From Octopus vulgaris (Eukaryota), in contig OX597839.1 of NCBI GenBank assembly GCA_951406725.2, forward strand, positions 806,001-870,000: a stretch of DNA of 64,000 nucleotides, given 5' to 3'. A program made the translations under genes and the position numbers. The notes below the pieces were generated by a model. It ran no database searches, was not told where the DNA came from, and saw nothing but the letters and a program-made list of their open reading frames with translations. Of this stretch, positions 38,776-64,000 are shown in pieces (positions within the stretch are counted from its first letter, which is position 1; each line of letters begins with the position of its first letter).

Positions 38776-38835
38776 CCTCTATTTACATAATATTGAGGTC
38801 TCTTTCTTTCTTTTGTTATCTTACTGTTTTTAACA

Positions 38836-38868
<33 letters not shown>

Positions 38869-38944
38869 AATGTATAAATAGTTACAGAGATGTACTTGCA
38901 TAGCAAGTGACTTGATCTGAGATCGTGTGCTGGAACGAAAACAG

Positions 38945-39204: not shown

Positions 39205-39519
39205 ATATATATACACACATATATATATATGTATGTATGCATGTATGTGTGTGTGTGTGCGTGTCTGTGCTTGTGATTGTCCTCCACCACTGCTTGACAA
39301 CGAATGTTGGTTTGTTTACATCCCTGTCACCTAGTGGAAACAGATAGAATAAGTACAATGCTTACAAAAATAAAACTGGAGTTGATTCATTAAACTACAA
39401 TTCTTCAAGGCATTGCCCCAGCATGGCCACAGACCAATGGCTGGAAAAAGCAGAAGAATAAAAGAATACATTCTCTGCTTTGGTCTTATGTTCAAGGCAT
39501 AAGAAAGCTTGAGTTTACA

Positions 39520-40120
39520 TGAGAAGGCCTAACAGACCTGGTAGAAACAGCAGCCAAATCTCTCTCAAATCACACCTTACTGTTTTATGTATGTATATAT
39601 ATATGAGCCAATGAGGGGCACCTCTACATGGTAGCTAGACCTGGTAGAAATAGCAGCCAAATTTCCCCCAAATCACACCTTACTGTCTTATCTATGTATA
39701 TATGTATGTATGAGCCTATGAGGGAGACCCCTACATGGCAGCTAGACCTGGTAGAAATAGCAGCCAAATTTCCCCCAAATCACACCTTACTGTCTTATCT
39801 ATGTATATATGTATGTATGAGCCTATGAGGGAGACCCCTACATGGCAGCTAGACCTGGTAGAAATAGCAGCCAAATTTCCCCCAAATCACACCTTACTGT
39901 CTTATCTATGTATATATGTATGTATGAGCCTATGAGGGAGACCCCTACATGGCAGCTAGACCTGGTAGAAATAGCAGCCAAATTTCCCCCAAATCACACC
40001 TTACTGTCTTATCTATGTATATATGTATGTATGAGCCTATGAGGGAGACCCCTACATGGCAGCTAGACATGGTAGAAATAGCAGCCAAATCTCCCTCAAA
40101 TCACACCTTACTGTCTTATC
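39520..40120. repeat. 107-bp minisatellite, ~5.5 copies
   Basis: ORF starts at 39628, 39735, 39842 and 39949 spaced exactly 107 bp; central units identical. Confidence 0.95.
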
Positions 40121-40212
40121 TTTCTGCTACTTATATTCGTCGTAAAAAACTTTCCTGTCACACACTCACGCACACGCACACACACACACACACACACACG
40201 CGCGCACCCTCA

Positions 40213-40249
<37 letters not shown>

Positions 40250-41739
40250 TCACACACACGCACGTTAGCTTACAATTTTATTTATATATTTGCGTGTCTG
40301 TGTTGAAAGAGGAAGTGGGAGGCAGAGTGAAAGAATCACTCACTACAGTAAGTAAATTACTTTCATTTTATTCGCTGCCCACTGTGTGTGTGCGTTTGCG
40401 TGTGGTGTAAACCAGACTAAGAAAAGCATTTGACACACACACCAGAATGTGAGTTTTCTGTAAATTTTGCTTAATTGGAGTTTAAATTTTAAAAACTGGA
40501 GCTGGCATGACGCGATGCATTGTACTCTTAAAATTGCTAGGTAAATTGTAATTGAAGAAATGCTATATTGTAGATTTGTATAACTCCCAAAGGGAGGCAG
40601 ATAAAATCTGCCTTTTATAATAAGAGATATATACCAACGCATAGCTATCTATCTATTTCTTTGTCTGTCTATCGGTTTGTCTGTCTGTCTTTTTCTGCCT
40701 ATCTTTCTATTATTCTATTATCTAAAATAAGAAGACACAGAAAACGTTAATTAGGCTAAAGATTTTTATAACCTGTGCCTGATTGGCATTCGATTGGCGA
40801 ATTAAAACAAAGAGATTGTCATGCTTCTTTGATATTTGCAGCAAGATCCCCACTCTGTATAATGGTCAAACACTAAATGTACTTGACCCAACAAAACGAA
40901 GGGGTCTTGACTATTATTCCGCAACCTCGTCGTGCATAGTTAGAAATATCGTTTTTTTTTCCATTATTTAATTTCCTTTGACTTTCTTAAACTTGATTAA
41001 AATTGCATATACTTTATGTTAAAATATTCTTTGTATTATAACCTTTATTTTATACAAGTTTTAGAGCATAATTAACTAGCGGAACCTACTGGTTTATTTT
41101 TGAAAACTTTATCCAAAAAGGCCTCTCTTGCATCTGTACTAAAAGATAGTCGATCATCTACTAATCATTGAAAAGTGAAAGAAATTGGAATAGGATGATT
41201 AAGCACTTTATATATACACATTATATACTTTATGCTCAATTTTATAGACTTGATATACAGCACACTCCCTCTTTCCCTTTCACTCTTCGCCTTACCCCCA
41301 TTTTCTCTAGCCCTTATCTTTCGTTCCTCGCCTTTCCCTTCAACTGATCACGTGAAAGCGTTACAGATGGGCTGAGTAACGAAGAGAAACATCTGAGTTA
41401 AATAAAATTACACATTTTACTCATCACCACCTCTCTTTCCCCAACTCATCTCCCTTATCCTCTTCTCCATTCACATCCCCTTCACTTCCAACCACTTTCC
41501 GTTTCCTTCCCCTCAATTAATCACGTGGAAGCGTTACCGAGAGGTTAAGTAAGGGAGTGACAAGAAGAATTATAAGATTATTATAATTAACAGAATCTTT
41601 TAACATTACTTACTCAAGATCTTCTTCATATTCACATTTTGCTCGGCTTTCTTCTATGTACACTCAGAAGCAAGCTAATAGTTAAGGAGTGAAATTTAGG
41701 ATTTCTCGGTTTTCTGTAAATCGATTTTGCTAAAACTTT

Positions 41740-43022
41740 TCTCAGCTGGTTTGTGCACTATAGCAACACCACTGTTATGTTTTCATCATTCTGTGTAACG
41801 TCCTTTCTTTTATATTTCAGATTCTTCAGTTTTGGGGTGAACGTAGCTAATAACTTTTGAATGAAAATAGCCCACCTAGATATTTTTTCCAGTAAATGAA
41901 GAGTAATGATACATATTTAGCATACATTGTGTATATATTTAACCGAAAACCATAATAATATTATAAAATTTATTTGCATAATGTATTATTTAGCCACATG
42001 ATCACCATTTCGATGGATAACTTCAAAAGCTCTACTAGTCATGGAATCTGTTGATTCCTTAATAGTAGGTTGGACTGCCTCTGCAGCTTTGGTGGTCGCC
42101 CATAAAACATCTTTCGGTGTAAATTGGCGTCCATCGGGATAAACATCTTGCTTAATGATGGATCAAAGATTTTCGATAGGGTTGAGATCCGGAGATGCTA
42201 GCAACCACATCTTTCACCTTGTATGTTGCAAGATCCTAGAAATGTTTGGGGGGAGGGAGCGCCGTCATCATAAGTACGAGATTCCTTAGAAGTGAAAGCT
42301 GTATGTCATCTAGCCAGGGATCCAAGACCTCTTTCAGGAGATTGCGACTGGGACCACTTTAACTTCTACATGCCGCTGATTGGGCCAACAAGTCTGCCCC
42401 CATGATACCAGCCCACAACATGACTCCTCTACTCTTCCTTTTGACGTTGTGAACGTTAATGATGCTCATCTCCTAAAGGGACCCAACTGCTTGCCCAAGT
42501 ATCAGGTTCGTCAAAGGTCTTGGTTTTGTCAGTGAAAAGAAAAGAACTTATGTTTAATATCATGTAATTTTGGACCTATTGAAGCCTCACACTTCTGTGA
42601 GGAGGCAGTTTTAGGGTTTCTCACACGGAAGCCATGGTCCCGAGGGTGCGATTTCTGGTGGTTTTTGGTACATGAAGAAGTCCGGAGGCGATAAACCTAG
42701 CTTTGCTTGTTTGTCCAGGTTTCTTACGTAATTTGCGGTCAATATTCCTTGAATCCCTAGCTATCACAGTCTTGCAGGTTCCACAATCGGATAGTTTCTT
42801 CCTTAGCGCTCATGTGGCTAAATAATTCATTATGTCAATAAATGTTATAATATGATTATGGTTTTCAATGTATGCTTAATATTTATCATTACTCTTCGCT
42901 ATTTTCATTCAAAAACTGAAGAATCTGAAATAACAAAGAAAGAACGTTACACAGAATAATATAACAATTATTATAAAAATATAACAATGGTGTTGCCATA
43001 GTGTGCAAACTATCTGAGAAAA
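41740..43022 (-). mobile_element. Tc1-like transposon relic with terminal inverted repeats
   Basis: Inverted ctcagctggtttgtgcactatagcaacacca / tggtgttgccatagtgtgcaaactatctgag; internal VMLWAGI and SPDLNPIENL motifs on the minus strand. Confidence 0.8.
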
Positions 43023-44395
43023 AGTTTTATCAGAATTGATAAGATATTAACATGGTTCTGGGTGTATTATTATTTGAGATTGACTCATCAATTTGTTGGT
43101 TCAATCACGTTTACTGCGTGACCGATTTGGAGCATTGTACTTGCAATGTAAAAAATTATGCTTACAAATGGAATACTATAAGTGATACTAAAATCACTTT
43201 TTATAATGCCAGTTTTCCTTCCAAAAGGATGAGCATTGTTGCTTTGTTTTTAAGAAAAGTTAATTGAAATGAAATAACATGCTTAGATATATAACTATAA
43301 AATAAAAATTAAAAGTCAGTGTGGCATTTCCCCCAATTAAAACCAACAATCACCTTAACGTGGTATGGGGATGAACCAGAAATTGGGATGACCGTGGCAG
43401 TGGTGTTTGAATGATAATCTAAATGATATAATCTTAAAAACAAAAAAATTTGAATGGAAAATATTTCCTATTTTACAGAAAAAGGGTTCAACAAAATGTT
43501 CAAACTTTAAATTTTTCTTAAGAATATTGTTTTATAGAAAAAGGTTCAATAAAATGTCGAGCCTTCAAAAGTTAGAAACTAGAAGCGAAAAAACAGTTTA
43601 ATTGGCATTTTATTGTTCTCTTGTTCATTCTATCATTCACCTTCTTCCATCTTCTCTCTTCGAATAATTCATTATCCTTTCTTCCTGGACCTAACTTTGT
43701 TTCATGTTTCTCCTCTCTTCCTCTCCTCCTTTTTCTCTTATTTTTTTTATTTCATTACCTGTCTCCTTCCGTCCTTAATCCCCATTAAATGCTTCCATTT
43801 GTGCTTCCAAAAGGAATGATAGAGTTAATCTTCATTAGTTAATAAAAGGGGATTGAAGTGGTGATATTCCCCACCGTTTAAAAATAAGTTTTCTTTGCTA
43901 ATGAGATGCTCGTTTCAAAAACTGCAACAAAATGCCGATCATTTGTTTTTATATTTTTTCGATTCTACTTTCGATTTTGTGTTTTCGATTCTAGAAAGCA
44001 CAACATTTTAATAAAACTTTTTCTGTAAAAAAAAAAGCAATTTAAAAAAATTAAACACTTTTCTGGAAAACAGGAAATTTAACAGGTGTAAGTAATCAAT
44101 ACATAAAGTAGAATGCATGTATCACATTAGAAACCTGTTATATTATAAGCTTGAGTTTCACGTAACCGACTGTTAAAACGATGATCGAAGAGCAGCAACT
44201 TACAAAATATAAATGAAATATGACCAAAGAAAGTGATTTTAATTCATTGTTCATTAGTTATGTATAGAAGAGAAATATTTTCCCTTTAAACTTTACCTAT
44301 ATTTTTCTTGGCTGTTTGGCCTCATTTACTAAATTTGTTGCTATATTTTTACGCTTTTGCCACATTTTATCCTTATATATTTATTTTGTTTGTAG

Positions 44396-44436
44396 ATGTT
44401 ACGTCAGCGATGATAGTGATAGTGACAGTGCCTCTG
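44396..44436 (+). other. Candidate 41-nt mini-exon (acidic Ser/Asp linker) of copy A
   Basis: T-rich tract + tgtAG|...|GTaagt; one frame reads CYVSDDSDSDSAS. No domain match recognised. Confidence 0.4.
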
Positions 44437-44962
44437 GTAAGTTTTAACAATTTTACTACACTCCAACCACATTTACAAACTGAATAATTGTTATAATACT
44501 TATCTGAGACTATTGGGAGATAACAAATAAGATTCTTTCGGTATAGCTCTGTGTCACCATTGGAGTGAGGGTTTATAGGCTGGCACATTCTGAAATTCAT
44601 AAATAAATTTTTTTACAAGTTATTGTAAGATGAGATCAGGTGACGAGCAGGCAAAGTCGTTACATGTCGTACAAAATACATAGCGACATTTCTTCTGAAT
44701 CTTTATTTTCTCAATTGTACGCTACCGACGTCGACTTTACTTTTCATCATTTCTCGGCCTATAAAATAAGTGACAGATGGTCATTAAGGTCGATGAAAGG
44801 TCCCGTCCTTCGACTTGATGTCTGCTTACACATGTGTCCCCATATACACACATACACACACGCAAACGCGCGCGCACACACACGCATACGCGCGCGCACA
44901 CACGCATACGCGCGCGCACACACGCATACGCGCGCGCACACACACGCATACGCGCGCTCACA

Positions 44963-44996
<34 letters not shown>

Positions 44997-45007
44997 TATA
45001 TATATAC

Positions 45008-45059
<52 letters not shown>

Positions 45060-45222
45060 GGCATAGGAGTGGGTGTGTGGTAAGTAGCTTGCTTATGAAC
45101 CACATTGTTCCGGGTTTAGTCCCACAAGGTGGCAACTTGGGCAAGTGTCTTCTGCTATAGCCTCGGGCCAACCAAAGCCTTGTGAGTGGATATGGTAGAC
45201 GGAAACTGAAAAAAGCCCGTCG

Positions 45223-45267
<45 letters not shown>

Positions 45268-46010
45268 CGTGTGTGTGTGTGTGAGCGCGCGCGCGCGTGT
45301 GTGTGTTTGTGTGTGTGTGTGTCTATACGTTTGTGTGTCTGTGTTTGTCTCCGCTACATCACTTGACAACCGGTTCGGCAAAAGAGAGAGATACAATAAG
45401 TACTTGGCTTACGAAGAATAAATCATGGGGTCTATTTTCTCAACTAAAGGCGGTGCTCCAGCATGGCCACAGTCATATGACTGAAACAAGTAAAAGAGTA
45501 AAGAGCGATATGTATAATATGAGATATTTTGGTATCCAGAAGACTCAAAAAGCAGGTAAGGCTAATGTAAGTGTTATGGAAGGACTGCTGTTAAGCCCCC
45601 AGTATTTTAAGAGCATAAGTAAGGAGTGTAAGGCAGACCGTGTGAGAGCATGTATATTTTAAATAATTACAAGTACTGAAGCTCTTTTAACTCGTCTGTG
45701 ATGATGGAATATCATTTCTAAGACTACCTATTTATTTATAAACTAGCAGTATCACCCGGCGTTGTGGTTTGTTTAGACCCTTCAGAATTGGAATTTTTGA
45801 AAAGTAAAAATTTGGCAGTATGTAGCTTGTTATTCTCTTTAAGAGAAATACACCGAAAAATGGTGACACGGCAATCAAAACATCGTAAAAAATAGGGATA
45901 TTCAAAGAAAAAAGGCACCTTTTTGACGTAAATAATTTATGGTGTTAACATGGTCCGACTTGAATTTTTTCTTCTACGGAAGAAGGAAGAGTTAGCCTTC
46001 GTCTATCATA

Positions 46011-46041
<31 letters not shown>

Positions 46042-46042
<1 letters not shown>

Positions 46043-47345
46043 CTAAAATATTAGGGAATAAATCCAAACTTACAGGGAAAAATCAAATTTAGGATTAAAT
46101 CCAATTTTATAGTATAAATATATTATATCATATTATATTATATTATATTATATTATATTAAATTAGAGATAAAACCACTATTAGGCAAATCAAACAATGA
46201 AAAACATAAGCCAATACATAAAATTAATTAATTTATATTATTTTAAAAATATATCAAAAGTATTATAAGTCTAATAAAGGATAAAGTGTAAAACACTACG
46301 ATCGTTTCATTGCTGTACAATTCGTAATAAATTCGAGTTATGGTTACAGTCAATCTTCAGGTGAATTGAAATATCTAAAACATAATCAGAAATATTTAAA
46401 CATTATTTTTAAGATATAAATAATATAATAATTTTACTTATAATAAACTCTATTATCAAACTAGAAACTTAAAACTTAACAATTATGATTATATCAAAAT
46501 CTACTATAATGTTAAAAATCAACTTTAATTTAATTGGTAGGAAACCCACCAATAATCTAATATCGGTATTAGTCTATATCTAATTACATAAACATTTAAA
46601 AATGACTAATATATATAAATTATCAATGAAAATATATAAGTGTATATAAATATTAAGATCTAAAATAATCTCTATAAATAAATATATATGCACATAAAAT
46701 AAAAACCTAATAAATTAAGTTTTCATATTTAAAGATGAAATAGCTAATTTCAAAATACAAATAAACAAACTTAAACGAACTTTCGGAAATCTTATGTAAA
46801 ATACTTATAGAAATAATCAATTCGTAGTAATATAGTATCGAATAAATACTATAAATATAATTATCAATGGGAATAACTAGCGAATATCAATTTAAAGAAA
46901 TAACTAAGTTATGCTATTAAATTAGACATGACCTGGACCAATCTTTAGTCGAAACATATCTAAGTTTATCAAAGTTTATATAATTTAATTATAAATTTAA
47001 AACTACAATTAATACTATTAAAACATGTATATACAAAAGCCTAACTTAATACACCTCGTATGCTTGCTATTAAATAACAAATCTATCGCTAAGTAGTATC
47101 TTACGAATAAATTTAAATTTAATATCTAATAATATAGAAAATTACGATAATTAGATCATTACATAAACAACGATATTTACATAAGGAAAATATTATTACA
47201 CCAAAGACTTATACAATATTAAAATTTACAATTTGAAGATCTTAAATATAAATAAATACTTATCTTAATTAATTTTATGTATTGGCTTATGTTTTTCATT
47301 GTTTGATTTGCCTAATAGTGGTTTTATCTCTAATTTAATATAATA
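46042..47345. mobile_element. AT-rich Penelope-like element with inverted ends; collapsed hairpin versions at 3245-3550 and 16968-17275
   Basis: agagataaaaccactattaggcaaatc... and its reverse complement; shares the agggaataaatccaaa...acagggaaaaatca leader with the 55980 element. Confidence 0.7.
46294..46363 (-). ncRNA. Type I hammerhead ribozyme with extended stem II
   Basis: CAC CUGAAGA uug(a)cugua...uacagcaau GAA AC-gauc-GU A GUG; palindrome ACGATCGT. Confidence 0.65.
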
Positions 47346-47350: not shown

Positions 47351-47387
<37 letters not shown>

Positions 47388-47389
47388 TC

Positions 47390-47623
47390 TACAGAATATA
47401 GAAATATACTGCGCAAAAACACTATTTCTAGATCAAATTATATCATACGTGTTGCCATAGTAGTCACACGCCCATGATAACTAAACGACCGCTACTAGTT
47501 AAAAGCAAAATCAATGCATGAAGAAGAAAACAGTAAGAAACAAACAACAAACTTTCAACCTCCGCCTCTTTCACTTTCTCTTTTTGTTATATCGCATCCT
47601 CATTCGTTGAAACACAGGTAAGT
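47390..47623 (+). promoter_or_regulatory. Putative promoter/first exon of MIB-like copy B
   Basis: TGCGCA, GTTGCCATAG (RFX X-box-like half site) and CACGCCC (Sp/KLF-like) motifs, followed by a consensus donor CAG|GTAAGT at 47617/47618; lies upstream of exon 2. Confidence 0.5.
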
Positions 47624-49057
47624 TGGCATGCAAAGAGAGAGCTATATATTCTGAAGCAAATTTGAGAGGCATTCATTTCTGTAATTGATTTAAAGCACTG
47701 TCTTGACGAGAACCAAACTTTCCAAGCAACACAACACATCTCTATATCTACAATTAAGGTAATTTCCTATAATAGCTTCATAATAGCTTTTATAATTTTA
47801 GAGATCATTTTAATATGAGTCTACACACACACACACACACACACACACGCATATTTTGGTTAAAGTAGCGAAAATATGAAACAATTAGTGAAAGCATGCA
47901 AATGTTACACACCTACTTCAACATTCACGACGCATACCTGCTAGTTTGAATAATCCTGAAGAACACTCCTTATACATATACATATACATGTTGGCCACAC
48001 GTTACCGAGTGTTTCAATATTTAATAACTCCCTTATTTCAACTAGCAGGTGTATGAAATTTTAGTTCAACATAGAGAAGGCAAATTAGGTTACTTTGCAT
48101 TAGCACTTTTCATCACACCTCTGCATTACGTATGAAGTATGACATCTTTATAATGTCCTCCATTTTCAGCATCGCGATCCAGTACTTTTTCCAAAAAATG
48201 TTCCATGTCAGTTGTAGTTCAGGGCCCAGTTTCCTGATTTCTCGAGGGATATTCTTCTTCGATTGCTCTGGGTTTCTTGTCTGTTGGCATAAATCAACTC
48301 CTTGCAGTATCCCCAAAGGAAAATTTCACTGCTGGCTAAGTCGTGGGAAAGCGATGGTCAGTTGTCATCGGAATAGCTAGGGATGATTCTTTCTCCAAAA
48401 GATTGTTTCAGCAATCTTATTGTTTCTCTTGCTTTATGATCACTTAGCCTTTCTTCATAGAATCACATATCTGGCCTATTTTGAATGACCGTTGACAAAA
48501 TGCTCTCCGTCATGGAACTGTACCTCTCACCAGTCACAGTGATAGTTTTCCTATCACCGTCCTCAAATAAATAAGGCACGATTATCTCATCCATCGTAAT
48601 TGCACACCAAACTGTACACTTTATGGAATGAAACTCTCTTTGATGTTCTGCACTTGGATTCTCATATTCCCCCAACCAGGCAATTTTGACTGTTTATGAA
48701 CCCAATCAAATGAAAGTGAGCTTCATCAGACATGATCAATATTTGTGTAAAATTTGGGTCATTTCGTGCCAATTTCTGGATTCCCACCGCCTGTATCCAT
48801 AATTCTCAGGCTACAGCTGTTGAACCGACTGCACCTTGTGTAGAAAAACGGTTTCACCACTTGGATGTGCTGTGCGGTGCCATAAATTTCTATAACTAAT
48901 TTTCAGAACGTAGTCCATGGAATCCCTGAAAAGAACAGAAAAAGTTTTTGAAAAATGAAAGAATTCTAAAAAAATTGCAATTCCTCAGTGACTTTTAGGC
49001 CACCCTGAATATATATAAATATATATATATATGCATGCCTACATACATATATATATA

Positions 49058-50608
49058 TAAGCACTGTTGGAAAGACCTTTGCCCGCGTTATCCTGGCCAG
49101 GCTACAACTATTTGCTTCTCGAATATATCCGGAACGCAGTGTGGCTTTAGAAGAAGCAGATCAACAATCGCTATGATATTCTCCGTACGCCAACTTCAGG
49201 AGGAGTCCAGAGAGCAGAAAATGCCATTATGTATGGCCTTCATTGATCTAACAAAGGCCTTTGACTCGGTAAGCAGAACAGGCCTCTTCATCCAGCTCCA
49301 AAAAATCGGATGTCCACCAAAGCTGCTGAGGATCATCAAGTCTTTCCATGATGACATGCAAGGCACCATACAGCACAACGGTTCAACATCAGCCGCCTTC
49401 CAAATAAAAAAAACGGGGTAAAGCAAGGTTGTGTCCTCGCTCCTACATTGTTTGGCATCTTCTTCTCGCTCTTACTCTCACATGTCTTTCAGACATCAGA
49501 TGATGGAGTGTTTCTGCACAGTAGAAGTGACGGGAAACTGTTCAATCTCTGGCGCCTGCGTGCCAAGACCAAAATCAGAAACGTCATGATCAAGGAGATG
49601 CTATTTTCTGATGATGCCGCTCTGGTATCACACACAGAAGAAGCCCTCCAAAGACTCATTAACTGTTTTGAGCAAGCATGTAACGAATTTGGTTTAGCTA
49701 TCAGCCTTAAGAAGACCAACATCATGGGTCAGGTTACATCGGACATCCCAAACATACATATTGGAGACCACAGATTACAAGAGGTGGAGAAGTTTACCTA
49801 TCTTGGCTCTACCGTTACCTACAACCTATCCTTTGACGCTGAGCTCAATATACGCATTGGCAAGGCAGCTGCTGCGATGGCCCAACTCTCCAAACGAGCT
49901 TGGGACAACAATAAGCTGACAAAGACCACGAAAATGAAGATCTATCAGGCATGTGTACTTAGCACTCTACTGTATGGAAGTGAGACTTGGACGCTATACA
50001 CACGCCAAGAGCGTCGCCTAAACATCTTTCACCTACGCTGCCTCCGGAAAATCCTCCTAATCAAATGGCAGAATCATACCCCCAACAAAGATGTCCTCAG
50101 GCAAGCAGGAATACCAAGCATGTTTGCACTCCTCCCACAAAGACGTATGAGATGGCTTGGGCATGTTAGCCGTATGAAAGATGGCAGGATCCCCAAGGAC
50201 ATATTCTACGGAGAGCTTGCTAGGGGTACTAGGTCTGGGGGTAGACCGTTCTTACGTTACAAGGATGTTTGCAAAAGGGACATGAAGGCCTGCAACATCA
50301 ATATTAGCGGTTGGGAGGCAGTTGCCGGCAACCGTGGAGACTGGCGACGTACCGTAAAAGAGGGAATACAAAGGAGTGACAGAGAGAGAGAGGAGAAATG
50401 GAAAGACAGAAAAGACGTCAACAAGAAACTATGGCATTACAACCAGCCAGGAACAGTCTCCGCTACATTTGCGGTACCTGCCAGAGGGAGTGTTTGTCCA
50501 GGAATGGCTACACAGGCACTGCAGGAAATGTATCAGGGCATGAAATGTAAAAGCCGGACTAGACTACTTTGTGCGCAACGCCATTGTCTCCCGAGACAAA
50601 AAGTATGC

Positions 50609-50616
<8 letters not shown>
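49058..50616 (+). mobile_element. 5'-truncated RTE-clade LINE, duplicate of 25582-27104
   Basis: 387-aa ORF 49448-50611 with the same RT motifs; same truncation point. Confidence 0.95.
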
Positions 50617-50655
<39 letters not shown>

Positions 50656-50740
50656 TACATATGCACATGTATATAAACATAAATATATATATATACATAC
50701 ACACATATATATACATATATAAACACATACTTACATGCAA

Positions 50741-50778
<38 letters not shown>

Positions 50779-51483
50779 TATGCAACAGATATTTCAAGAA
50801 ATACTTGGTAATTTAATACAACAGCTCTAATCTACAGTAATCAAATGTTATAATAGAAAAAGGTTGTGCATATCCTTTCAATAAGATCATTGAATGAATC
50901 CACCTTCAGCTTCAATGGCTGTTGCAATGCAAAGGATTCTTTGAAGAGTTTGGGCTGTATTGCCATTATTGATTTCAGGTATCTCGTGGACAATGTTGAT
51001 CTTTATGGAATTTGCGGTATTGTGAAGATTCGACAAGAAGCCCTTGGGATTGAAATCTGATTGCTCTTAGAGGTCAGATGTTTGGTGTTATATGATTGGA
51101 AATAATTTATGACCTCCATTATTGAGTTACCTGAATGTTTTGAGAAAATGCTGATTTTGTATAGTTATCCTCTTCGCACTTCTTTCCTCCAAGGCTCAAC
51201 AATATTCCCCAAAATTTCAAATTGTAAGGCCCTGTGGAAAGTGTGTTTTAACATGACCTCTCATAATCACGTCCCCTAAATACATCACATTTGCTGGAAA
51301 CTTAGCGTGCATCAATCTGACGCCAGCGGAAAGATCTGCACGTAACCATTTGTTATTTCTGTTGTTACACTTCTGATCTTGATGGAATTATTTTCATGAG
51401 GTGAGAATCAAAGCAAGTATATTGTGTATGCGAGGATTCTTGCGTCTTTGTAGACAGGAAAGAGTCTTATATCCATCATCAAC

Positions 51484-51568
<85 letters not shown>

Positions 51569-51632
51569 CCTGTCTGTCTGTCTGCCTACCTGTCTGTCTG
51601 TCTATCTGTATCTATCTATGTATCTATCTATG

Positions 51633-51692
<60 letters not shown>

Positions 51693-51701
51693 CATCCATC
51701 C

Positions 51702-51782
<81 letters not shown>

Positions 51783-53330
51783 TCTGGTTCGGTCCGGACC
51801 TCCAAATGGAGAAGAACTGGAACGAGATAATGAGTAGGGTGGTCACTCTCGCCCAGCAATGGGCCGAGAGGAAACTGTCCCTAAAAGGTCGGGCGGAGGT
51901 GGCGAAAGCGTACATCGCGTCCATCATCTACTACCGCCTGACCGTCGTACCTTGTCCCGACCCTACCATCACCAAACTAGAACGCATCCTCTTCCGCTTC
52001 TTGTGGAAAGGATGCGTCGCGATGGTCAGGCGATCCATTTGCTGTCAACACCCGTTAAAAGGAGGGCTGGGCATGCCGTGGTTGATGATGCGCAGACACG
52101 CGCTGAGACTGCGACATCTCCGGCTCTATGTAGACGACGGTGAACAGGTGTGGTCGCCGTTTGTGAGGCACGCATTCCCGCAACTTGTCTCCATGACCGA
52201 ACTGCAGTCGTGGATCAAAAAGAGGCCGAGGAAGGGCGAATGGCACCGCGAGTGTCGCGTTGCTCTCAAGCAACTCTGCCGCCCGGGTCGACCTTGAGTG
52301 ACTTCAACACAACCAAAGCATTCTATAGGGGATTAGTGGAGGGGAGGTACAACGACGATCTCGGGGCAAACCTGGGCGTCGACGAGGAATACCTGACCCG
52401 CCTGTTTCAAACGACTTTCGGCCCGGGACCTATGGACAACTTCCAGAGATCCCTGGCCTGGCGGTGCTACCAAGAAGCGCTACCCGTTCGGGATAAGCTC
52501 TATAGGATGGCTCGAGAAACACGGGGCCGACCTGCCCGAGATGCGGGCAGAGCGACGAAACCGCTCTGCACGCAATCGTGCAGTGTCCAGCAATTTCCCA
52601 CCTGTGGGCTTATGTCGAACGACTGCTGTCACGTGTGGGACGTGTCGGTTTATCAGCCGAGCCTATCGTTAATATCGTCACGCCTTCTTCCTTCAAACGG
52701 GAAGGAAGAGCTATTTTTATCATACTTGTGGCTATGGCGAAAGAATGTATCTGGTGGACGCGCCTGAAAGGATTAGAGACAAACACTTTCCTCTCTGGTC
52801 AATCCCTCATCAACTTCTTCAAGTATCACTTGAGGAGGAAAGTGAGAGTAGAGAGGCAAGTTTTGTCTAGTGAATGTTTTAAAAAAGATGGGTGAATGTA
52901 GCAAGGATGGCACGTATGAATGACGAAGCCACCTTGACTATGATTCTATGAACCATAAAAATTAATACAGAGAGTTGCTTATTTGCAAAAAGAAAAAAAA
53001 TAAAAAATAAAAGAAAGAAATATAACATGTGACTTCATTGACCGAAGTTACCGGGGTCTTTTCCGTAGGCTTTTCTTTCCACGGGTAAACCTCACCTGTC
53101 CTCCCCTTTACACTTCATATTGACATTTCTGTGATAACGATCCCTATTGATCAATTTTTTTTCCTCTCCCCCTTTTTTTTTAACCCCCCTTTTTTGTCCT
53201 CTTTCTCTCCATTTACGATCCCTTTTGATCGAAACTCCCCCCTTCCTTTTTTTTTTAAACTTTCAAAAGAAAAGCTCTACCTTGTAATTTGTTCTATCTG
53301 TGTGCAGCCCTGTGTGGCTAATAAAGAAAC
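51783..53330 (+). mobile_element. 5'-truncated L1/Tx1-clade LINE inserted in (TCTA)n
   Basis: [31 protein letters not shown] and frameshifted zinc-knuckle region; GC-rich body; pyrimidine-rich 3' UTR ending AATAAAGAAAC. Confidence 0.9.
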
Positions 53331-53331
53331 A

Positions 53332-53396
<65 letters not shown>

Positions 53397-53483
53397 CTCT
53401 ATCTATCTGTCTGTCTGTCTGTTTGTCTGTCTATCTATCTATCTATCTATATATCTATCTATCTATCTATCTATTTATCTCTC

Positions 53484-53559
<76 letters not shown>

Positions 53560-53672
53560 TAAATCTATCTAACTAGGTAGCTAGCTAGCTATCTGTCTAT
53601 ATATTTGACTGCCTGTCTAGCTATCAAACTCTATCTGTATGTATATATATATATATATTCTCATGGTTTCAG

Positions 53673-53845
53673 GTGAATTGGAAAATACGGAAGCCGAGTT
53701 TGGATGTATGGAATCTTATATGGAAAAAATGGCTGCACTCCAGTTATGATTCATACCAGGTGATCATGTAACAATGTCCGATGACATAAGTTCATTAAAG
53801 ATGTTACAAAAAAAACATGGAGGATGGTACCTTGGTATGGAATTC
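53673..53845 (+). pseudogene. Exon of Mind bomb/MIB2-like gene copy B (putative exon 2): first half of Mib repeat 1, with in-frame TGA
   Basis: tttcAG|...|GTaggt boundaries, phase 1/0. Translates (G)ELENTEAEFGCMESYMEKMAALQL*FIPGDHVTMSDDISSLKMLQKKHGGWYLGMEF, matching the Mib repeat pattern FxxGDxVxxxxDxxxxKxLQxxHGGWxxxM. TGA at 53747-53749. Confidence 0.8.
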
Positions 53846-54778
53846 GTAGGTGTTGGTTTCTCTCTCTTTTTGCATTATGCTATTTGATCTCTGTTAATTG
53901 ATGTTATTCATGCAATAATAATAATAATAATAATTTCCACTATTGATACAAGGCCTGTAATTTAGGGTAGGAGAAGAGTAGATTACCTCGACCCCAGTAC
54001 TCAGCTAGTATCTCTTTATCGACCCCGGAACGATAAAAGGCAAACTCAGAACGAAAAGACAAACAAAATGCCGCTAAGCTTTTCGATCAACATTCTCATG
54101 TCGTCTCTTGTTTTTCTGCTGTACCAAAGAGTTATATTCACATACAATATGGCTTGTGGTTTCTCCAAACTTACCATACATTCTGCAGAATGGCGACTCA
54201 ATTGTTTTGTCAATATGGAATTTTACGAAATAGTTCTTAATGCTTGCACAGACACGAAATTTCGTCCCTTTTTTCAAATCTCCCTTATTCGTCCAAGACA
54301 ATCAGTCTGGTCACAAATATGAGTCGAATTATGTTCAAGTGTCAAGTATCTAACGCGTTTGCATGCACATGGGACAGAACGAAGTTAGTTACTACTTAAT
54401 AATGCTGAAAGTTTAGTGACAACAAAAACTGAACAGATTTTTGGTCAATCCAATATAAAATGAATTCCATTTTCAAAATTTGAATTTCATGTCATCTTGA
54501 CCGTCAGGGAAGAAATTTTATAACTCGGTGTATCTGTCCTTCCATTGCCATCGGTAATACATATGAAAAATAACTCCACGTTTGTTAGAATAAATGTGTG
54601 ATAAAAACAATTATTGCCTGACAATTTCAGTGATATGAAACTCGCGGTATTGGAAAGGAATTCAGCTTACACAAAGTATAATATTACATATTTTGAATTG
54701 TCTCTCCCACGTTCATTTGATAAAAATATACGTTTCAATTCCTTACGCATACACATACACACAAACAAACATGCTCAC

Positions 54779-54832
<54 letters not shown>

Positions 54833-55925
54833 TGGCAGAGTATCCTATATCCGAAAAAGAAAAAAAATGTAATGCGTTTATATCAAGTTAAACATATGTC
54901 CGGTCATAGAGTGACCTAGGGTTTCGGATCCATAAAGCGCTTAGCTTTATAGGTAGGAGACTAGTCTGACTGCAATAGCCGTGGGCATATGAGCTTTCTT
55001 CAAACAGAGGTAAGAAAACTGTTACGGTCAGTTGATTTGTAAACAAACGAATAATATACACTGTCTGGTCCTAAAACGGGACGAGTTATCTCTAATGGAG
55101 CGGTCCAGTTACCAAATCTTACGGACCCAAAGGTTGAACTGGAAATCTTCACACTTAAGCTGGTTTTAGCTTGCAAGTGCTTTGTACAGCCCCAATCGAC
55201 CTACGTGGAATCGCATGCATGTAGGAGGTAGCGTTTGAAATGGGATCAAGTACTATAGATCTTGTGTCTTGAGTTTAAGAAGAGATCCCGGATCCAGTGC
55301 ATTTCGATCAGCATCCTTGCCCGCTCTGTTATGCAAAGCTTGCGTCGTCCACTTCTGTTTATATAGGACTCCAGTTGTCCTATGATCCACCATCTAATTT
55401 CATGTTGAGTTCTTTCATCCTTAAGGCACCACACATGGCTGGTTAGGGATGTAATGTAACCTCTCACTGGAACTTTAAAAGTGGGCTTGCGGTTGTACAT
55501 ATCTCGCTTAAAAGTAGTTCTGGCCGGCTCGTGTTCACGCCTCTAGTAGATCTGCTGTTGGTGCCGGACCTATATTGTTGCTTTCGTTCTTATTGTTGTT
55601 AGAGCTATAGTCGGTTCCGTGGGTCCAGCGATATTGTTGTAGTTGTTGCCATTGCAGTAGTCATCTCTGGCCCTAGTGCTGGTGTTGCTAATGCTGTGAC
55701 CAAGAATGTAGCTGCCAGAATATTATCGGAACAAAACTATCGCCCCCGTTCTCATTTGAAATGCTACTTGACGTAATAATTTTCTACCACCTGTTTGAAG
55801 AGTGGTTATATATCCACGGCCATTGGAGTCTAACAAGAGGTCTATAAAACTAAGTGTTTTATGGAAGTGAGACCATTTATCACTGTATGAACAAGCATGT
55901 ATTTAACTGCATGTATATATGTATG

Positions 55926-55981
<56 letters not shown>

Positions 55982-56157
55982 ATAAATATTAGGGAATAAA
56001 TCCAAATTTACAGGGAAAAAATCAGATTTAGGATTAAATCCAATTTTATAGTAAAATATTATATAATATTAATTAGAGACAAAACCACTATTTTGCAAAA
56101 CAAACATGGAAAGACTTAATCAATACATAAAATTTTAATAAAAAGTCAAAAAAACCG

Positions 56158-56200
56158 CCACTACAATTGTTTCTTGTCCTGATCGACAATCTTCAGGTGG
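56158..56200 (-). ncRNA. Minimal type I hammerhead ribozyme (mirror copy)
   Basis: Exact reverse complement of 60225-60267. Confidence 0.8.
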
Positions 56201-59200
56201 ACTTCCAATCTAAAATATCAATATTTTAAAATATAGAAAATAATAATTTTAAAATAATTAAAGTATCAATGAAAAATATAAATATATAATCTATATATAA
56301 CCTATATATAATCCATATATAATCAATATATAAACAATATATAAACTAAAATAAACCTATCAACAATTAAATATAAAACAAAATAAAAATAAACTATATA
56401 TACACCCATACACATATAACTAATTATATATAACCATATCTAAATACATACACTAAATCACACACCTATATATATATCTCTATACATACACATAAAAACG
56501 TCTAGGCAACGATAAATAAATAAAATAGCCAAATACTTCAACACAATACTTATTCATACTCTCTCACACACACATACAACCCACATTCATAAACAATATA
56601 CGTATACCCGCTCACACATACATATACAAACATACAGAACTCGATATATACACCAATATATTCACACCCACAACTATACAGATAAATAAATTACGCAAAT
56701 AATCCCCCCCACACACACACCCATTCACACATACATAAACACTCAAAAGCAAAATAAATAATTCTTTGCACATGTTGATCGAACGTTTTTTTTAAAATTA
56801 TAAATGGAATAATATATAATCAACTTAAATATACAGAATCTACTACAAAACACCAATAAACGATCATGATAAATGAAACCCATATACATATTATGATAAA
56901 ACTCCCCCTACCATACACAATTATACCTATATAGCAAACCCATATACACATTCACACACAAATATACATACGTAAAACACACACACGCAACATATACGTA
57001 TACCCCTCCCATATACATATGCATACCTACTAAACTCGACATATACAACAATATTCTCACACCCACACACATACAGATAAATAAATTACGCAACCAAAAT
57101 ACGCACACACACACACATTCCCACATACATAAACACTCAAAAGAAAAACAACAATACTACACATAATACGATATATAAAATACTTTATAAGTAACCAGAA
57201 TATCAAAAGTAACAAGATTAACATAATGAGAAAAAATATACATACTTTCAAGTCAGTTTCAAATTATGAAGTGAAATTAAATTCTATCCGTTAAAAACGT
57301 CAAACAAATTTACGTTACCATAGGAACCTAACATATGTATAAAAAATATTCCCGCTCTGGAAACGAACATCATTTAAAATTATGAATGGAGAAATGGAAT
57401 AAATGGAATTAAAAATTATATTCACGTGGTTTTTTGGTTGTGTAGTTTGTTTATCTGAGTGTGAGTGGGTGTGAGCGTATTGTTGTGGATGTCGAGTTTG
57501 GTACGTATGTATATGGGTGTGTGTGTGTGTGGGGGGGGTGTAAGTATGTGTTGTGTGTGTGTGTTTTGCGTATGTGTGTTTGTGTGTATATATATGGATG
57601 TATATATGGGGATTGCTATGTGGGTGTAGTTGTGTATGGAGGGGGGAGTTTTGTCATTGTATGGGTGTGGGTTTCATTTGTCATGGTGGTTTGTTGGTGA
57701 TTTGTGGTATGTTCTGTATATTTGGGTTAGTTATGTATTGTTCTTGTGTGTGCAATGTTATACATGTATGATTGGTGTGCGTGGGATTGCGCCCATTTTT
57801 TGGGGATGTATGTGTTTATTTGTCCGTGTGGGGTGGGAGTGGTTTTTTGGTGTATATGTTGAGGTTTATATGTAATTATAGGTATGTGTGAATGAGGGGG
57901 TATTTGTATTTGTCATGGGTGTGTGGTTTACGTGTGTGTATTTGTGTGTGAATGTATAGGTTAAAGCGATTGCTATATAGGTATGTTATAGAGTTTAGTA
58001 AAGGGAGGTTTTATCATTTATGTTTTTATGAGTTTTAATTTATCATGGTAGTTTTATTAAAGAATTCGTAGTAATTTATGTCTTTTTATGATATTACATT
58101 ATTCCATTCATAATTTTTAAGTAATGTTCGTTTACCGCGTGAATATAATTTTTAATTCCATTTATTCTATTTCTCCATTCATAATTTTATATGACGTTTG
58201 TTTCCATAGCGCGAATTCTTTTTATACATATGTTAGGTTCCTATGGTAACGTAATTTTGTTTGACGTTTTTAACGGCTTAGAATTTAATTTCACTTCATA
58301 ACTTGAAACTGACTTGAAAGTATGTATAATTTTTCTCCTTATGTCATCTTGTTACTTTTGATATTCTGGTTACTTATGAAGTATTTTATATATCGTATTA
58401 TGTGTAATAATGTTGTTTTTCTTTGGAGTGTTTATGTATGTGGGAATGTGTGTGAGTGTGTGCGTATTTTAGTTGTATAATTTATTTATCTGTATGAGTG
58501 TGGGTGTGTAAATATTGTTGTATATATCGAGTTTAGTGAGTATGTATATGTATATGTGAGGGTGTATATGTATATGTTGTGTGTGTGTGTTTTACGTATG
58601 TATATTTGTGTGTGAATGTGTATATGGGTTTGCTATATAGGTCTGGGGATGTATGTGTTCATTTATCTGTGTGGGGTGGGAGTGGGTTTTTGGTGTATAT
58701 ATTGAGGTTTATACGTATGTATAGGTATGTGTGAGTGAGGTGGGTATTTTTATATGTCGTGGGTGTGGTTTACGTGTGTGTATTTGTGTGTGAATGTTTA
58801 GGTTAGGGGGATTGTTATATAGGTATGTTATAGAGTTTAGTAAAGGGAGATTTTATCATCATATGTTTTTATGAGTTTTAGTTTATCATGGTAGTTTTAT
58901 TAAAGAATTCGTAGTAATTTATGTCTCTTTACGATGTTTGTTATTTTATTACATTATTTCATTCATAATTTTTAAGTAATGTTTGTTTTACCACGTGAAT
59001 ATAATTTTTAATTCCATTTATTCCATTTCTCCATTCATAATTTTAAATGATGTTCGTTTCCAGAGCGGGAATATTTTTTTATACATATGTTAGGTTCCTA
59101 TGGTAACGTAAATTTGTTTGACGTTTTTAACGGATAGAATTTAATTTCACTTCATAATTTGAAACTGACTTGAAAGTATGTATATTTTTTCTCATTATGT

Positions 59201-60224
59201 TAATCTTGTTACTTTTGATATTCTGGTTACTTATGAAGTATTTTATATATCGTATTATGTGTAGTAATGTTGTTTTTCTTTTGAGTGTTTATGTATGTGG
59301 GAATGTGTGTGTGTGTGTGCGTATTTTGGTTGCGTAATTTATTTATCTGTATGTGTGTGGGTGTGAGAATATTGTTGTATATGTCGAGTTTAGTAGGTAT
59401 GTATATGTATATGGGAGGGGTATACGTATATGTTGTGTGTGGGTGTTTTACGTATGTATATTTGTGTGTGAATGAGTATATGGGTTTGCTATATAGGTGT
59501 AATTGTGTATGGTAGGGGGAGTTTTATCATAATATGTATATGGGTTTCATTTATCATGATCGTTTATTGGTGTTTTGTAGTAGATTCTGTATATTTAAGT
59601 TGATTATATATTATTCCATTTATAATTTTTAAAAAAACGTTCGATCAACATGTGCAAAGAATTATTTATTTTGCTTTTGAGTGTTTATGTATGTGTGAAT
59701 GGGTGTGTGTGTGGGGGGGATTATTTGCGTAATTTATTTATCTGTATAGTTGTGGGTGTGAATATATTGGTGTATATATCGAGTTCTGTATGTTTGTATA
59801 TGTATGTGTGAGCGGGTATACGTATATTGTTTATGAATGTGGGTTGTATGTGTGTGTGAGAGAGTATGAATAAGTATTGTGTTGAAGTATTTGGCTATTT
59901 TATTTATTTATCGTTGCCTAGACGTTTTTATGTGTATGTATAGGGATATATATATATAGGTGTGTGATTTAGTGTATGTATTTAGATATGGTTATATATA
60001 ATTAGTTATATGTGTATGGGTGTATATACAGTTTATTTTTATTTTGTTTTATATTTAATTGTTGATAGGTTTATTTTAGTTTATATATTGTTTATATATT
60101 GATTATATATGGATTATATATAGGTTATATATAGATTATATATTTATATTTTTCATTGATACTTTAATTATTTCAAAATTATTATCTTTTATATTTTAAA
60201 ATATTGATATTTTAGATTGGAAGT

Positions 60225-60267
60225 CCACCTGAAGATTGTCGATCAGGACAAGAAACAATTGTAGTGG
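60225..60267 (+). ncRNA. Minimal type I hammerhead ribozyme
   Basis: CCAC CUGAAGA UUGUC-gaucag-GACAA GAA AC-aauu-GU A GUGG: stems I and II, palindromic stem III, GUA cleavage triplet. Confidence 0.8.
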
Positions 60268-60353
60268 CGGTTTTTTTTACTTTTTATTAAAATTTTATGT
60301 ACTGATTAAGTCTTTCCATTTTTTGTTTTGCAAAATAGTGGTTTTGTCTCTAA

Positions 60354-60450
<97 letters not shown>

Positions 60451-60464
60451 TGTATATATACATA

Positions 60465-60499
<35 letters not shown>

Positions 60500-60981
60500 T
60501 AAAGATTATTTGCCAAATTAATGTGTCAGTCCTGATTAAGACGAATGTTTCTGTTATTTAACCCCAGCTGGTGACGCACTAACCTCGTCCTTATATTTCC
60601 GATCAAGGGAGTTTAGTGTCCCCACCCAACTGTAAAGCTTTAGAGTTGAGCGGGGACATGAAACTCCCTTGTCCGAAAATACAAGGACGTAGTTAGTGCG
60701 TCGAAAGCCAGCTGAAGAGAATGTCTCTTTGGGCTAAATAATAGTAACATTCGTTCTAACCAGGACTGCCATATTATGCTGGTAAATAATCATTACTCTA
60801 GAGTACTGTTACTGAATGTCTCTCGTTCAGAGATTTAGAAATAAGTTTTATATATATATATATATATATATAAGTTTTATATATATATATATATACAACA
60901 CAAACACACGTTCGCACGCACGCACACACACATACACACACACATACACACACATGCACACACACACACATATACACACAT

Positions 60982-61045
<64 letters not shown>

Positions 61046-61186
61046 ATGTGTGTGTGTGTGTGTGCATGTGTGTGTATGTGTGTGTGTATGTGTGTGTGCG
61101 TGCGTGCGAACGTGTGTTTGTGTTGTATGTGTGCGTGCCTATCTATGTATATGTTTGTAATCTTTGTTTAATACATTTATGTTCAG

Positions 61187-61300
61187 TTTATAGGTAAAGT
61201 TGGTATTGTTGAACGTGTAAATGATGGAGGCAATGTGTTAGTGAAATACGCAAATCATAATAACCGAAAATTGTGCTTAAATCCGGACGCTCTGAAGAAG
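61187..61300 (+). CDS. Exon of MIB-like gene copy B (putative exon 3): second half of Mib repeat 1
   Basis: ttcAG|114 nt|GTtagt, phase 0/0, in frame with the 53673 exon. FIGKVGIVERVNDGGNVLVKYANHNNRKLCLNPDALKK matches xGKVGxVxxxxxxGDVxVxY...NPxALxK. Confidence 0.8.
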
Positions 61301-62189
61301 GTTAGTATGTGAGGCTATTAAGTCTCATTCCACTCAGCTCTCTCTAGTTTCTGTTTCAAGTTTGTTTTTCCATATGACTTAATTGTTTGCTCCCAATTAG
61401 ACAATCTAGCGTCAACACATTTTACTTACACCAACCAAGTTTTCTTCCCTGTTAAGTCCATCAGTTCAACAATATGATTACAAAACTGCGACAGAAAAGT
61501 ATCTAGATTTCTATATAACTGTTCCAACCCCTTGGAATGTCATCCTCGCTGGAAGAACACCTTTCATCTTGAAACCAAACATGGTAGTTTTTCTTATAGC
61601 GCTGATTTGAGCCACATAAGCTACTCGATGTAGATCTCTCTTATCATCTGATTTTAATTTAAAAGTTCAAAGTGGGCCTAAATATTTCATATTCCACCAA
61701 ACAGATAACAACACCTAACGTAGGTGAAGACCATATTTAGCCTGAGTGCCGGTGTTTCTCCTTTCTCTACCCACTATCTTCGGCGCTTGATATTTTTTAT
61801 AGAGAACACATTTCTCATTACCAGTCATTATTCGGTTCAAAAATTTCTATTCGTGAAACTTGACTGCACAGAAGAGCTCACATTCACTCTGAGCGAGCGA
61901 TCAGACTCTGAAATTTGCGAGGACCTCATTGACCCAATTTCATGACTTTTCCGATGTTACGCAGGTATCGAAGAAAGGCTGGATGAACAAATCCAAGCTT
62001 CTCTGCTAGTTCCTCAACATTTACGGTGGGATTTTGTTCCACAGCGTTTGCAGGATGTTCTCGTCGAGTTCTACAGATCTTCCAGGATGTATCTCGTCTT
62101 CTTGGCTGTAGTTTCGGCTCAAAATTTTAGTAGATGCAATTGAAAAAATCGCAGTATTTATGGGATAACCCAATATATCCACGTACATA

Positions 62190-62322
<133 letters not shown>

Positions 62323-62755
62323 TATCTATACGCGTATAGCGTGCTGTTTATCATTTATGCAGTCATCAAAATTGTTATAATGTCTTGTTGAGATAGTTTC
62401 TCTTTCTTTCCTGATGGGAAGATTACATTATTTTACAGTTTATTCCTTTTTTCGATTAGGAAAAGCTTTCGCATAAAAATGATGTGTATAAAAAGAAACA
62501 CGTTTTACTGAATAAATAGCATGTCGTAACCAGAAGAGGATTGCAGAGGAAGAAAATCACATTTCGTCCTTGGTTTCGCTGTAATTCCGCTTATTAGAGT
62601 TAAAAGATTGTTCTTCAATGCATGTTAGACCACACACACAGACACAGACACAGACATACAGACAGATACGCACACACACATACACACACACGCACACACA
62701 CACACGAACACACACACACGCACGTACACATTTTTATATATAAAAGTTTTATGTA

Positions 62756-62804
<49 letters not shown>

Positions 62805-64000
62805 CTTGTGTTTTGGGGAGGGTTATTATGCCAATAATAATAACTGCATGCACTGCTTCACTATCACTTCTTTGTTGCTAAATGCCTAACCAACTAACCA
62901 ATCAATCGATTGTTTAATGAGCTGGTTAAAGAATCAATTGGTTGGTTGTTAGTCAAAGTCCTTTCATCGCTCTTCAGTGATATGAATATGTTTGTATCTG
63001 CTGCTGCTACTGTAACCCAGCACAACTTGCTGCATTTCTCAATCTACCAGCAACTAAACTGGCAACACCACCAAGCTTTGTTGGTGAGTTGGATGGTTTT
63101 GTGTGTCTGTCTCCTACGATTTAGATTCCTAACTACTCCCACATTTTGCGGTGCAGTGTAACCAAAAGCTTATAGTCGTGATTCATATCGATCCCTTCTG
63201 GGTATTAGCGCGCGTCTACGATGAGTCTACGATTAAAAAAAAATTACCATCATTTTTTCCCATTTTTTTGCTATTATATAAGGGAAGTAACTCTCTAAAA
63301 ATGTATTATTAAATCTCAGAACGTAAAAAGCTACAGTAACACCCCACCTTTGTGGTTAGCCATATTGAGATGGCTATTATACTTTACATCTCTAAAAATG
63401 CTTATATAGTTATTTCCCTTACAAACCCGAGCAACGCCGGGCGATTCTGCTAGTGTATATATAAAATTTAAACAAGTATGAGCTAAGAGTGGCCTATGCC
63501 ATGTTAATGAATAGCATAGAGAAATACAGCGTAAATTTATAATCTATTAAAATTATCTCAGCCGCCAGAGCAGTGGTTCCCAACCGATTTTTGGCCATGC
63601 CACACCGAATCATTACTAAAATCCTGATGTTCCATTGTGATATTTAATTTTTGTTATTCAAAATTTGGTTATTGTTTACAATATTACACGGAAAGTAAAT
63701 GAAAAATAAATAGTGCAACGGATGTAAAAAAAATGTGTAGGAAACGAATATGAAAAAAAAATGCGCGGAAAGTAACGGGGGAAGGAAAGGACTTTTGAAA
63801 ATTCGCAAGATTTCTGCGCCCCGGCTTTGGATGATCAAAACTTTCAGAAAAATGGATACTTTTAATGAAATTGTCTACGAATATGTGTTATATATTGTAG
63901 ATTCCAAACAATTTTTGGGGTGGGGTGGAAAGTGTTTAAGGAGGGGTTGTGCTGGGGAATTTCGGAAAATTCACCGGAGTCCACTTCAATTCCTCTTAGA

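Follow-up and report, generated by a model that had tools for sequence, protein, structure and literature searches.

TRIM5 and the finTRIM proteins of fish are clustered antiviral RING restriction factors with variable loops under diversifying selection. Cephalopods, to our knowledge, have no adaptive immunity, and we know of few diversified recognition families from them. For the F-box adaptors of nematodes, an antimicrobial role has been proposed (PMC8120010, in excerpt, also citing Thomas 2006), and the selected sites of the NLR-like ankyrin proteins of Podospora lie on the concave face, in the inner helices and in the beta-hairpin (PMC4986451, in excerpt). MIB2 (Mind bomb 2, also named skeletrophin) is an E3 ubiquitin ligase and, to judge from sequence, the direct parent of the octopus genes described here. 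The Mib repeats (REP) have been confirmed as a ligand-binding module (PMC11887331, in excerpt), and the GHGGW motif of repeat 1 lies in a pocket required for Jagged1 binding (PMC5345843, in excerpt). Human MIB2 requires its terminal RING for activity (PMC7815719, in excerpt) and MIB1 requires RING3; the concave face of the MIB1 ankyrin region is conserved yet dispensable for Notch signalling (both bioRxiv 2024.03.01.582834, in excerpt).

Open-access main texts on octopus or mollusc MIB2 and on cephalopod mind bomb held no description of a family such as the one reported here (genome-paper supplements might list the expansion), nor did the available part of a review on cephalopods that mentions mind bomb. 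Our search for open papers on the contact residues of Mib repeats also returned none.

The window analysed here is a 64,000-nt stretch of Octopus vulgaris DNA (contig C26, positions 806,001-870,000), and exons were mapped in C26 0.72-1.40, 1.63-1.68 and 2.46-2.57 Mb. It forms part of a cluster of at least eight MIB2-derived loci on one chromosome: the partial locus G (C26 731-756 kb), a fragment A inside the window, B (860-926 kb), D (939-989 kb), E and F, both partial and rearranged, C (1,184-1,244 kb) and H (1,316-1,345 kb). Further scraps were found besides these, and four of the genes are near full length. The full MIB2 parent is located at 2.51-2.57 Mb, 1.2 Mb from the cluster on the same contig. 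Gene F carries an inverted exon 3 opposite a partial forward copy (C26 1,153,600-1,154,900).

From Mib repeat 1 onward, exon phases and exon order match MIB2, and the ankyrin region is present in the cluster proteins. A tree of that region (22 rows) places the cluster as a clade (99/99) within the cephalopod MIB2 clade (100/99), leaves the inner fork unresolved and divides the cluster into H and a long-stemmed group of B, C and D. Exon structure and tree point firmly to descent of the cluster from MIB2. The Mib_HERC2-ZZ-Mib_HERC2 (MZM) module was looked for and not found: a genome search with PF06701 gave 11 matches, none of them in C26 0.72-1.40 Mb, and the module is also missing from proteins P0001, P0002 and P0011. 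Mib repeats (REP, PF18346) number two in B and C and three in D, E, F and H, and a linker exon restores the frame in the three-repeat genes.

Orthologues of H occur in O. sinensis and O. bimaculoides, and O. sinensis also has a C-like gene. MIB2 itself is 100% identical to its O. sinensis counterpart and 99% to that of O. bimaculoides; between gene C and its match in O. sinensis, identity is 95%. Of the best 120 among 2,008 matches, those without Mib_HERC2 were these Octopus proteins and one 723-residue record. We rejected a barnacle record without the MZM module (P0229) as a parallel case, its protein cluster containing a full-length sister record. The protein-cluster atlas held MIB2-type clusters only, an all-protein search was dominated by long ankyrin proteins, and the best fold match was the MIB1 ankyrin region (8V0E). 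Three short O. sinensis records on small contigs (P0282, P0285 and P0286) consist of three H-type Mib repeats only and are either extra truncated copies or assembly fragments. At their N-termini, C (C26 1,244,189) and D (989,220) begin Met-Gly with Ser at position 6, which fits what we take to be the N-myristoylation consensus; E begins Met-Gly-Glu, H has no such start and B has lost it.

In the last exon, genes B, C, D, E and F have the same early stop, at four codons, and behind it deletions of 13 and 14 nt within the former terminal RING (C26 925.6, 938.8, 1,077.0, 1,171.6 and 1,183.9 kb). They have neither the coiled coil nor the terminal RING; this RING is retained in H and G. Because the terminal catalytic RING has been lost, this fast clade (B-F) should not be a standard Mind bomb ligase, and the label 'substrate recognition by E3 ligase' may not apply to it as such. 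The zinc ligands of RING1 are intact (PF13920, E 1e-9), and the residue after its last cysteine pair is Arg in the cluster where MIB2 RING1 has Lys, so a takeover of catalysis by RING1 is possible.

Within the window, all gene features lie on the forward strand. Fragment A occupies a block (24383..47050) that runs from the upstream region to intron 5 and is 97-98% identical to genes B and C. It has lost ~470 nt relative to B at the exon 2 deletion junction (28340..28370), retains exon 3 (31062..31175), carries an in-frame TGA (38182-38184) in an exon 4 that is densely changed at its 3' end (38101..38202), and keeps of exon 5 a 41-nt remnant with an internal deletion (44396..44436). With no exon 2, a stop in exon 4, a cut exon 5 and no later exons, copy A is a dead 5' fragment, and its located damage all falls in exons 2, 4 and 5. 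Exon 4 of A shows 14 A-only differences, mostly within one 3' tract (38176-38205) with ~11 changes and a 3-nt deletion in ~27 nt between normal flanking introns; we found no donor for this tract in C26 0.72-1.40, 1.63-1.68 and 2.46-2.57 Mb. The junction with gene B (46044..47050) is ~1 kb of sequence common to intron 5 and the upstream region, aligns to gene C in both of these places, and is likely an unequal-crossover point.

The 5' part of gene B fills 47386..64000, and its exons 4-14 lie outside the window (C26 875-926 kb). Exon 2 (53673..53845) encodes the first half of Mib repeat 1 and exon 3 (61187..61300, phase 0-0, bounded by AG/GT) the second half, beta2-beta5, of this Pfam SH3_15 domain. 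The first-pass annotation had called exon 3 a Mib-repeat exon, an identity that holds on its match to PF18346 (E 2.7e-4); the exon also matches CAI9741119.1, an Octopus vulgaris MIB2-like protein. A 12-nt deletion took the original start codon of B, and exon 2 has an in-frame TGA (53747-53749) ahead of strand 1 of repeat 1, so that gene B, given this upstream stop, may be decaying. The next ATG, at 53774, opens a frame of ~595 codons, and repeat 1 would lack strand 1 if translation began there; a fold model of B without this strand, built on an alignment of intact orthologues, places beta2-beta4 at pLDDT 84-91, with strands 1 and 5 absent. No B-type contig in the four public runs searched spanned the TGA site, where C-type contigs read AGA. 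Both Mib repeats of B have turned the conserved QEGHG basic, to QKKHG (53812-53817) and to QKRSG (exon 4, C26 875,276-875,380), a parallel change at the reported ligand pocket.

Other elements surround these genes. Upstream of fragment A, an array of more than 10 diverged units of 1.5-3 kb extends over positions 1-24400 of the window and C26 796-806 kb; related units also precede B and C, and the array is possibly amplified upstream or exon 1 sequence. Intron 2 of B contains a ~4.6-kb insertion (55930-60497) with inner repeats and 1.5-kb inverted arms (55930-57430 and 58990-60497, 95.8%), likely a foldback-type element, which is missing from A and C. Pieces of a non-LTR retrotransposon lie at 49355-50611 (B copy, 418 open codons) and 25520-27030 (A copy, broken), with a reverse transcriptase match (PF00078, E 2e-12); no such match was found for two probable retroelement pieces at 36382-37221 and 51800-52900.

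Exon 3 had been flagged as far more divergent between copies A and B than its introns, and our recount agrees. The copies at 31062-31175 and 61187-61300 differ at 13/114 nt, with 11 of the 13 differences amino-acid-changing (nine of 38 codons: 1, 6, 10, 12, 13, 14, 16, 32 and 34) and two synonymous (codons 36 and 37), while the upstream intron is identical (0/77 unmasked nt differ) and the ~125 nt downstream differ only at 61338 and 61341. In the remaining duplicated block, 182/7,579 nt differ (2.4%), a background drawn from four aligned blocks of the duplicated region with microsatellites and gap-adjacent columns excluded. Against it, the exon 3 excess reaches a Fisher p of 5.5e-6, a best-window permutation p of 0.0038 (5,000 shuffles) and, with differences up to 3 nt apart merged into 8 events, p 0.006. 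The pair contrasts a gene (B) with a broken pseudogene fragment (A). With gene C as third sequence, introns show 167 A-only, 178 B-only and 191 C-only differences over 14,899 columns (1.1-1.3% per lineage; microsatellites masked and 1,011 poorly aligned columns dropped). Exon 3 shows 2 A-only, 10 B-only and 4 C-only differences, and one site where all three differ. The B-only count compares with 1.4 expected (p 1e-6) and the A-only count is close to the neutral rate (p 0.37): the excess arose on gene B, and pseudogene copy A is neutral there. Seven of the changed nucleotides make up a B-specific cluster (61214..61232) that alters five residues (G10R, D12N, I13D, T14G and D16N).

The protein-changing excess is family-wide and extends beyond the flagged exon pair. 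Over 12 exons of B and C, pN is 104.5/1312 (8.0%), pS 12.5/428 (2.9%) and flanking intron divergence 191/7051 (2.7%); over six exons of D and E, the values are 60/561 (10.7%), 4/174 (2.3%) and 93/3185 (2.9%). Synonymous divergence between close paralogues thus equals intron divergence (2-3%) and non-synonymous divergence is 8-11%, so that protein-changing sites diverge at ~3-5 times the neutral rate. D-F, E-F, B-D and C-D go in the same direction, with the B-D and C-D totals omitting exons 2, 3, 4 and 6 owing to their deeper ancestry; B-C and D-E are the independent pairs, and all other tests share sequences.

Family-wide dN/dS is well above 1, in pairwise likelihoods and site models alike. 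Pairwise maximum-likelihood omega is 3.6-3.7 for B-C, or 3.3 with multi-nucleotide changes modelled (p 3e-4 or less), and 4.4-5.7 for D-E (p 6e-4 or less). It is weaker for the ankyrin and RING part of C-D (1.5-1.8, p 0.03-0.18), not significantly above 1 for exon 3 alone (2.2, p 0.27-0.30), and 0.26-0.39 for H against MIB2. An artefact of multi-nucleotide mutation was ruled out, omega remaining above 3 once such changes were modelled. Site models (M1a/M2a and M8a/M8, in self-written code) favoured M2a over M1a by likelihood ratios of 29.5-42.8 for the Mib repeats and 13.1-33.5 for ankyrin plus RING, with p values inflated by recombination, which is present. The selected class has omega 4.7-5.6 on ~40% of 225 codons in the former and 7-13 on 11-21% of 385 codons in the latter. 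Exon 3 codons 10, 12, 13, 14, 18, 27, 28 and 34 are flagged, the first four at a posterior of ~0.9 or more. On these comparisons, we consider positive selection on the family very probable.

The changes fall on predicted binding surfaces. The O. sinensis orthologue, modelled at a mean pLDDT of 89.5, has strands at exon 3 codons 5-11, 17-21 and 27-31, which would put the gene B cluster in the last part of beta2 and the loop between it and beta3. No variation is seen at codons 9, 10, 12, 16, 18, 27, 29 and 30 across 106 MIB2 orthologues (114 minus 8 partial records; related, so not independent), and five of these codons (10, 12, 18, 27 and 30) vary among the paralogues. The same codons change recurrently across lineages (27 as Q/R/L/K, 12 as D/N/H/Y), and neither MIB2 nor the paralogues vary at core positions 8, 19 and 36. 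The exon 3 hairpin may adjoin the GHGGW pocket and touch the ligand.

Ankyrin positions 2, 3, 5, 13, 14 and 33, which we take to be the binding positions of designed ankyrins, are variable in 23/47 columns versus 38/199 elsewhere, and MIB2 conserves them above average. Among columns at least 80% conserved in MIB2, 16/31 of the binding face are variable versus 10/96 of the others (p 5e-6). Relative to the intron rate, pN is 3.8-8.2 on the binding face, 2.5 at other ankyrin positions and 0.6-1.1 in the framework, the last not significantly below neutral. Rates, site models and the placement of sites together back the earlier suggestion of diversifying selection on a predicted binding surface.

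Our preferred explanation, which we hold to be reasonably probable, is that the cluster is an MIB2-derived tandem family caught in an arms race between host and parasite, in which selection keeps changing the binding targets. The history itself is shown by the data: a 3' half of MIB2, without the MZM module, was duplicated and expanded to at least eight loci on one chromosome, and genes B-F later lost the coiled coil and terminal RING, keeping two or three Mib repeats, nine ankyrin repeats and RING1. Amino-acid change is faster at residues invariant in MIB2, and the paralogues swap multi-kb blocks and often die. The sheet and loop of the Mib repeats may combine with the ankyrin concave face into one variable recognition surface, and the proteins could bind pathogen-derived or pathogen-targeted proteins, in the cytosol or tethered to a membrane; they would either lack ligase activity (as sensor, adaptor or decoy) or use RING1 for ubiquitin transfer. 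As to the driver, we lean, if only just, towards an immune target because of the analogy with nematode F-box genes and fungal NLR ankyrins and the TNF role of MIB2. More tentatively, the back half of MIB2 may have become a natural DARPin-like library of selected, block-reshuffled binding faces serving as intracellular pathogen sensors, decoys or RING1 ligases; on this reading the library would consist of Mib-repeat/ankyrin proteins without MZM module and terminal RING, some of them predicted to be N-myristoylated.

The selection could be real and its driver something other than infection: reproductive or gamete conflict, control of selfish elements, or the one-off acquisition of new host partners once the genes had duplicated. 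Statistics on sequences do not tell which agent selects, and Drosophila Mib2 without HERC2/ZZ rescues muscle integrity, for which the MIB and ankyrin regions are needed, largely independently of the RING (PMC5345843, in excerpt); a form without the MZM module and RING can therefore serve as an endogenous scaffold. We nevertheless think this alternative unlikely: the same codons have changed repeatedly in separate lineages and gene turnover is high, which recurrent conflict fits better than a single neofunctionalisation, and human MIB2 works in TNF and cell-death signalling (PMC5912950 and PMC7815719, both in excerpt).

Gene conversion was the other origin proposed by the first-pass annotation, and multi-kb exchange between paralogues, introns included, does occur. 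The introns flanking D exons diverge from B and C by 13-26% at exons 2-4 and 6 and by 1-6% at exons 7-13. O. sinensis XP_029651627.1 (P0007) is a mosaic that equals C at exons 9, 11 and 12 and D at exon 10 and is nearest to B at exon 8; it could be a recombinant gene or a chimeric model. Densely changed tracts are present in exon 2 of B and exon 4 of A, and a lost donor over 19 nt is conceivable. The excess might then stem from exon-limited conversion, with older paralogues outside the sample as donors, or from conversion that evens out introns and leaves old exon differences in place. Tracts from older donors should raise synonymous differences too, whereas pS in B-C and in D-E stands at the intron rate, and a genome-wide search for a donor of the B hairpin with up to two mismatches found none (its own site and one chance match; control 1). 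Conversion shuffles existing variation and cannot generate extra changes that affect only replacement sites and a single face of the protein. The synonymous rate largely refutes conversion as a family-wide explanation, the exon-limited form is not supported given that rate and the missing donor, and we regard either version as very unlikely.

Decay under relaxed constraint, or exon-directed hypermutation, in a dying pseudogene cluster is in our judgement highly improbable. Several features would fit it: the loci A, E, F and G are incomplete or broken, gene B has its upstream stop, B-F lack RING2, and all located damaged spots of A lie in three exons. No class with omega below 1 was found by the site models from any start, and because of this and of a framework not significantly below neutral, the case for purifying constraint draws chiefly on counts of frame-keeping indels and stops. 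In B-C exons, 5/5 indels have lengths divisible by three, against 11/50 in introns, and ~5.6 stops would be expected where the compared codons hold 0, with one just upstream of the compared stretch. Relaxation, however, tops out at the neutral rate, and pN is ~3 times that of introns. Synonymous sites, the dead last exon and exon 3 of pseudogene A all evolve at the neutral rate; the last exon with its flank, at 5-8/261 nt among B, C and D (2-3%), is a built-in control against exon-directed hypermutation. CpG hypermutation was rejected, with CpG-type changes making up 1/13 A-B, 11/89 B-C and 4/41 D-E differences.

Consensus error in the assembly was ruled out as the source of the exon 3 differences by independent runs: three of four public runs have contigs of the B-type exon as well as of the other type. 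These runs, presumed to be RNA though none of those listed is recorded as such, are coded, without tissue label and stored as contigs. Contigs of X1 and X2 (presumed RNA) span exactly 61187-61300 with two other letters each, an X2 contig has exon 2 spliced onto the B-type exon 3, and an X7 contig with the B-type exon has four other letters and two gaps over 170 nt. Run X6 (76% searched) gave, among the matches listed, the other exon type only and no B-type.

If the DARPin-like reading is true, the cluster would be a lineage-specific innate recognition system made from a Notch-pathway enzyme. It is a small, tractable candidate: four genes are near full length, the parent, nearly invariant, can act as control, and the variable residues are named. 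The conserved yet dispensable concave face of MIB1 becomes testable through it, since the cluster rewrites that face and Mib repeat 1. The database name 'E3 ubiquitin-protein ligase MIB2-like' masks the loss of the main substrate module and the catalytic RING.

Among the known systems, TRIM5 and finTRIM differ in their architecture of B-box, coiled coil and SPRY, which the cluster lacks, and the role of the cluster is putative. Unlike the NLR-like proteins of Podospora, the cluster proteins have no NACHT/NB-ARC, their within-gene repeats are not homogenised, and variation lies between paralogues. Nematode F-box SCF adaptors are alike in being tandemly expanded ubiquitin-system genes whose substrate-binding domain is under positive selection; the cluster differs in having no F-box or cullin link, another fold, ~8 loci instead of hundreds, and, in B-F, doubtful ligase activity. 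With respect to MIB2 itself, the cluster is without Mib_HERC2-ZZ-Mib_HERC2, D, E, F and H have a third Mib repeat, B-F are without the coiled coil and terminal RING, and surfaces that are invariant in MIB2 are hypervariable in the cluster.
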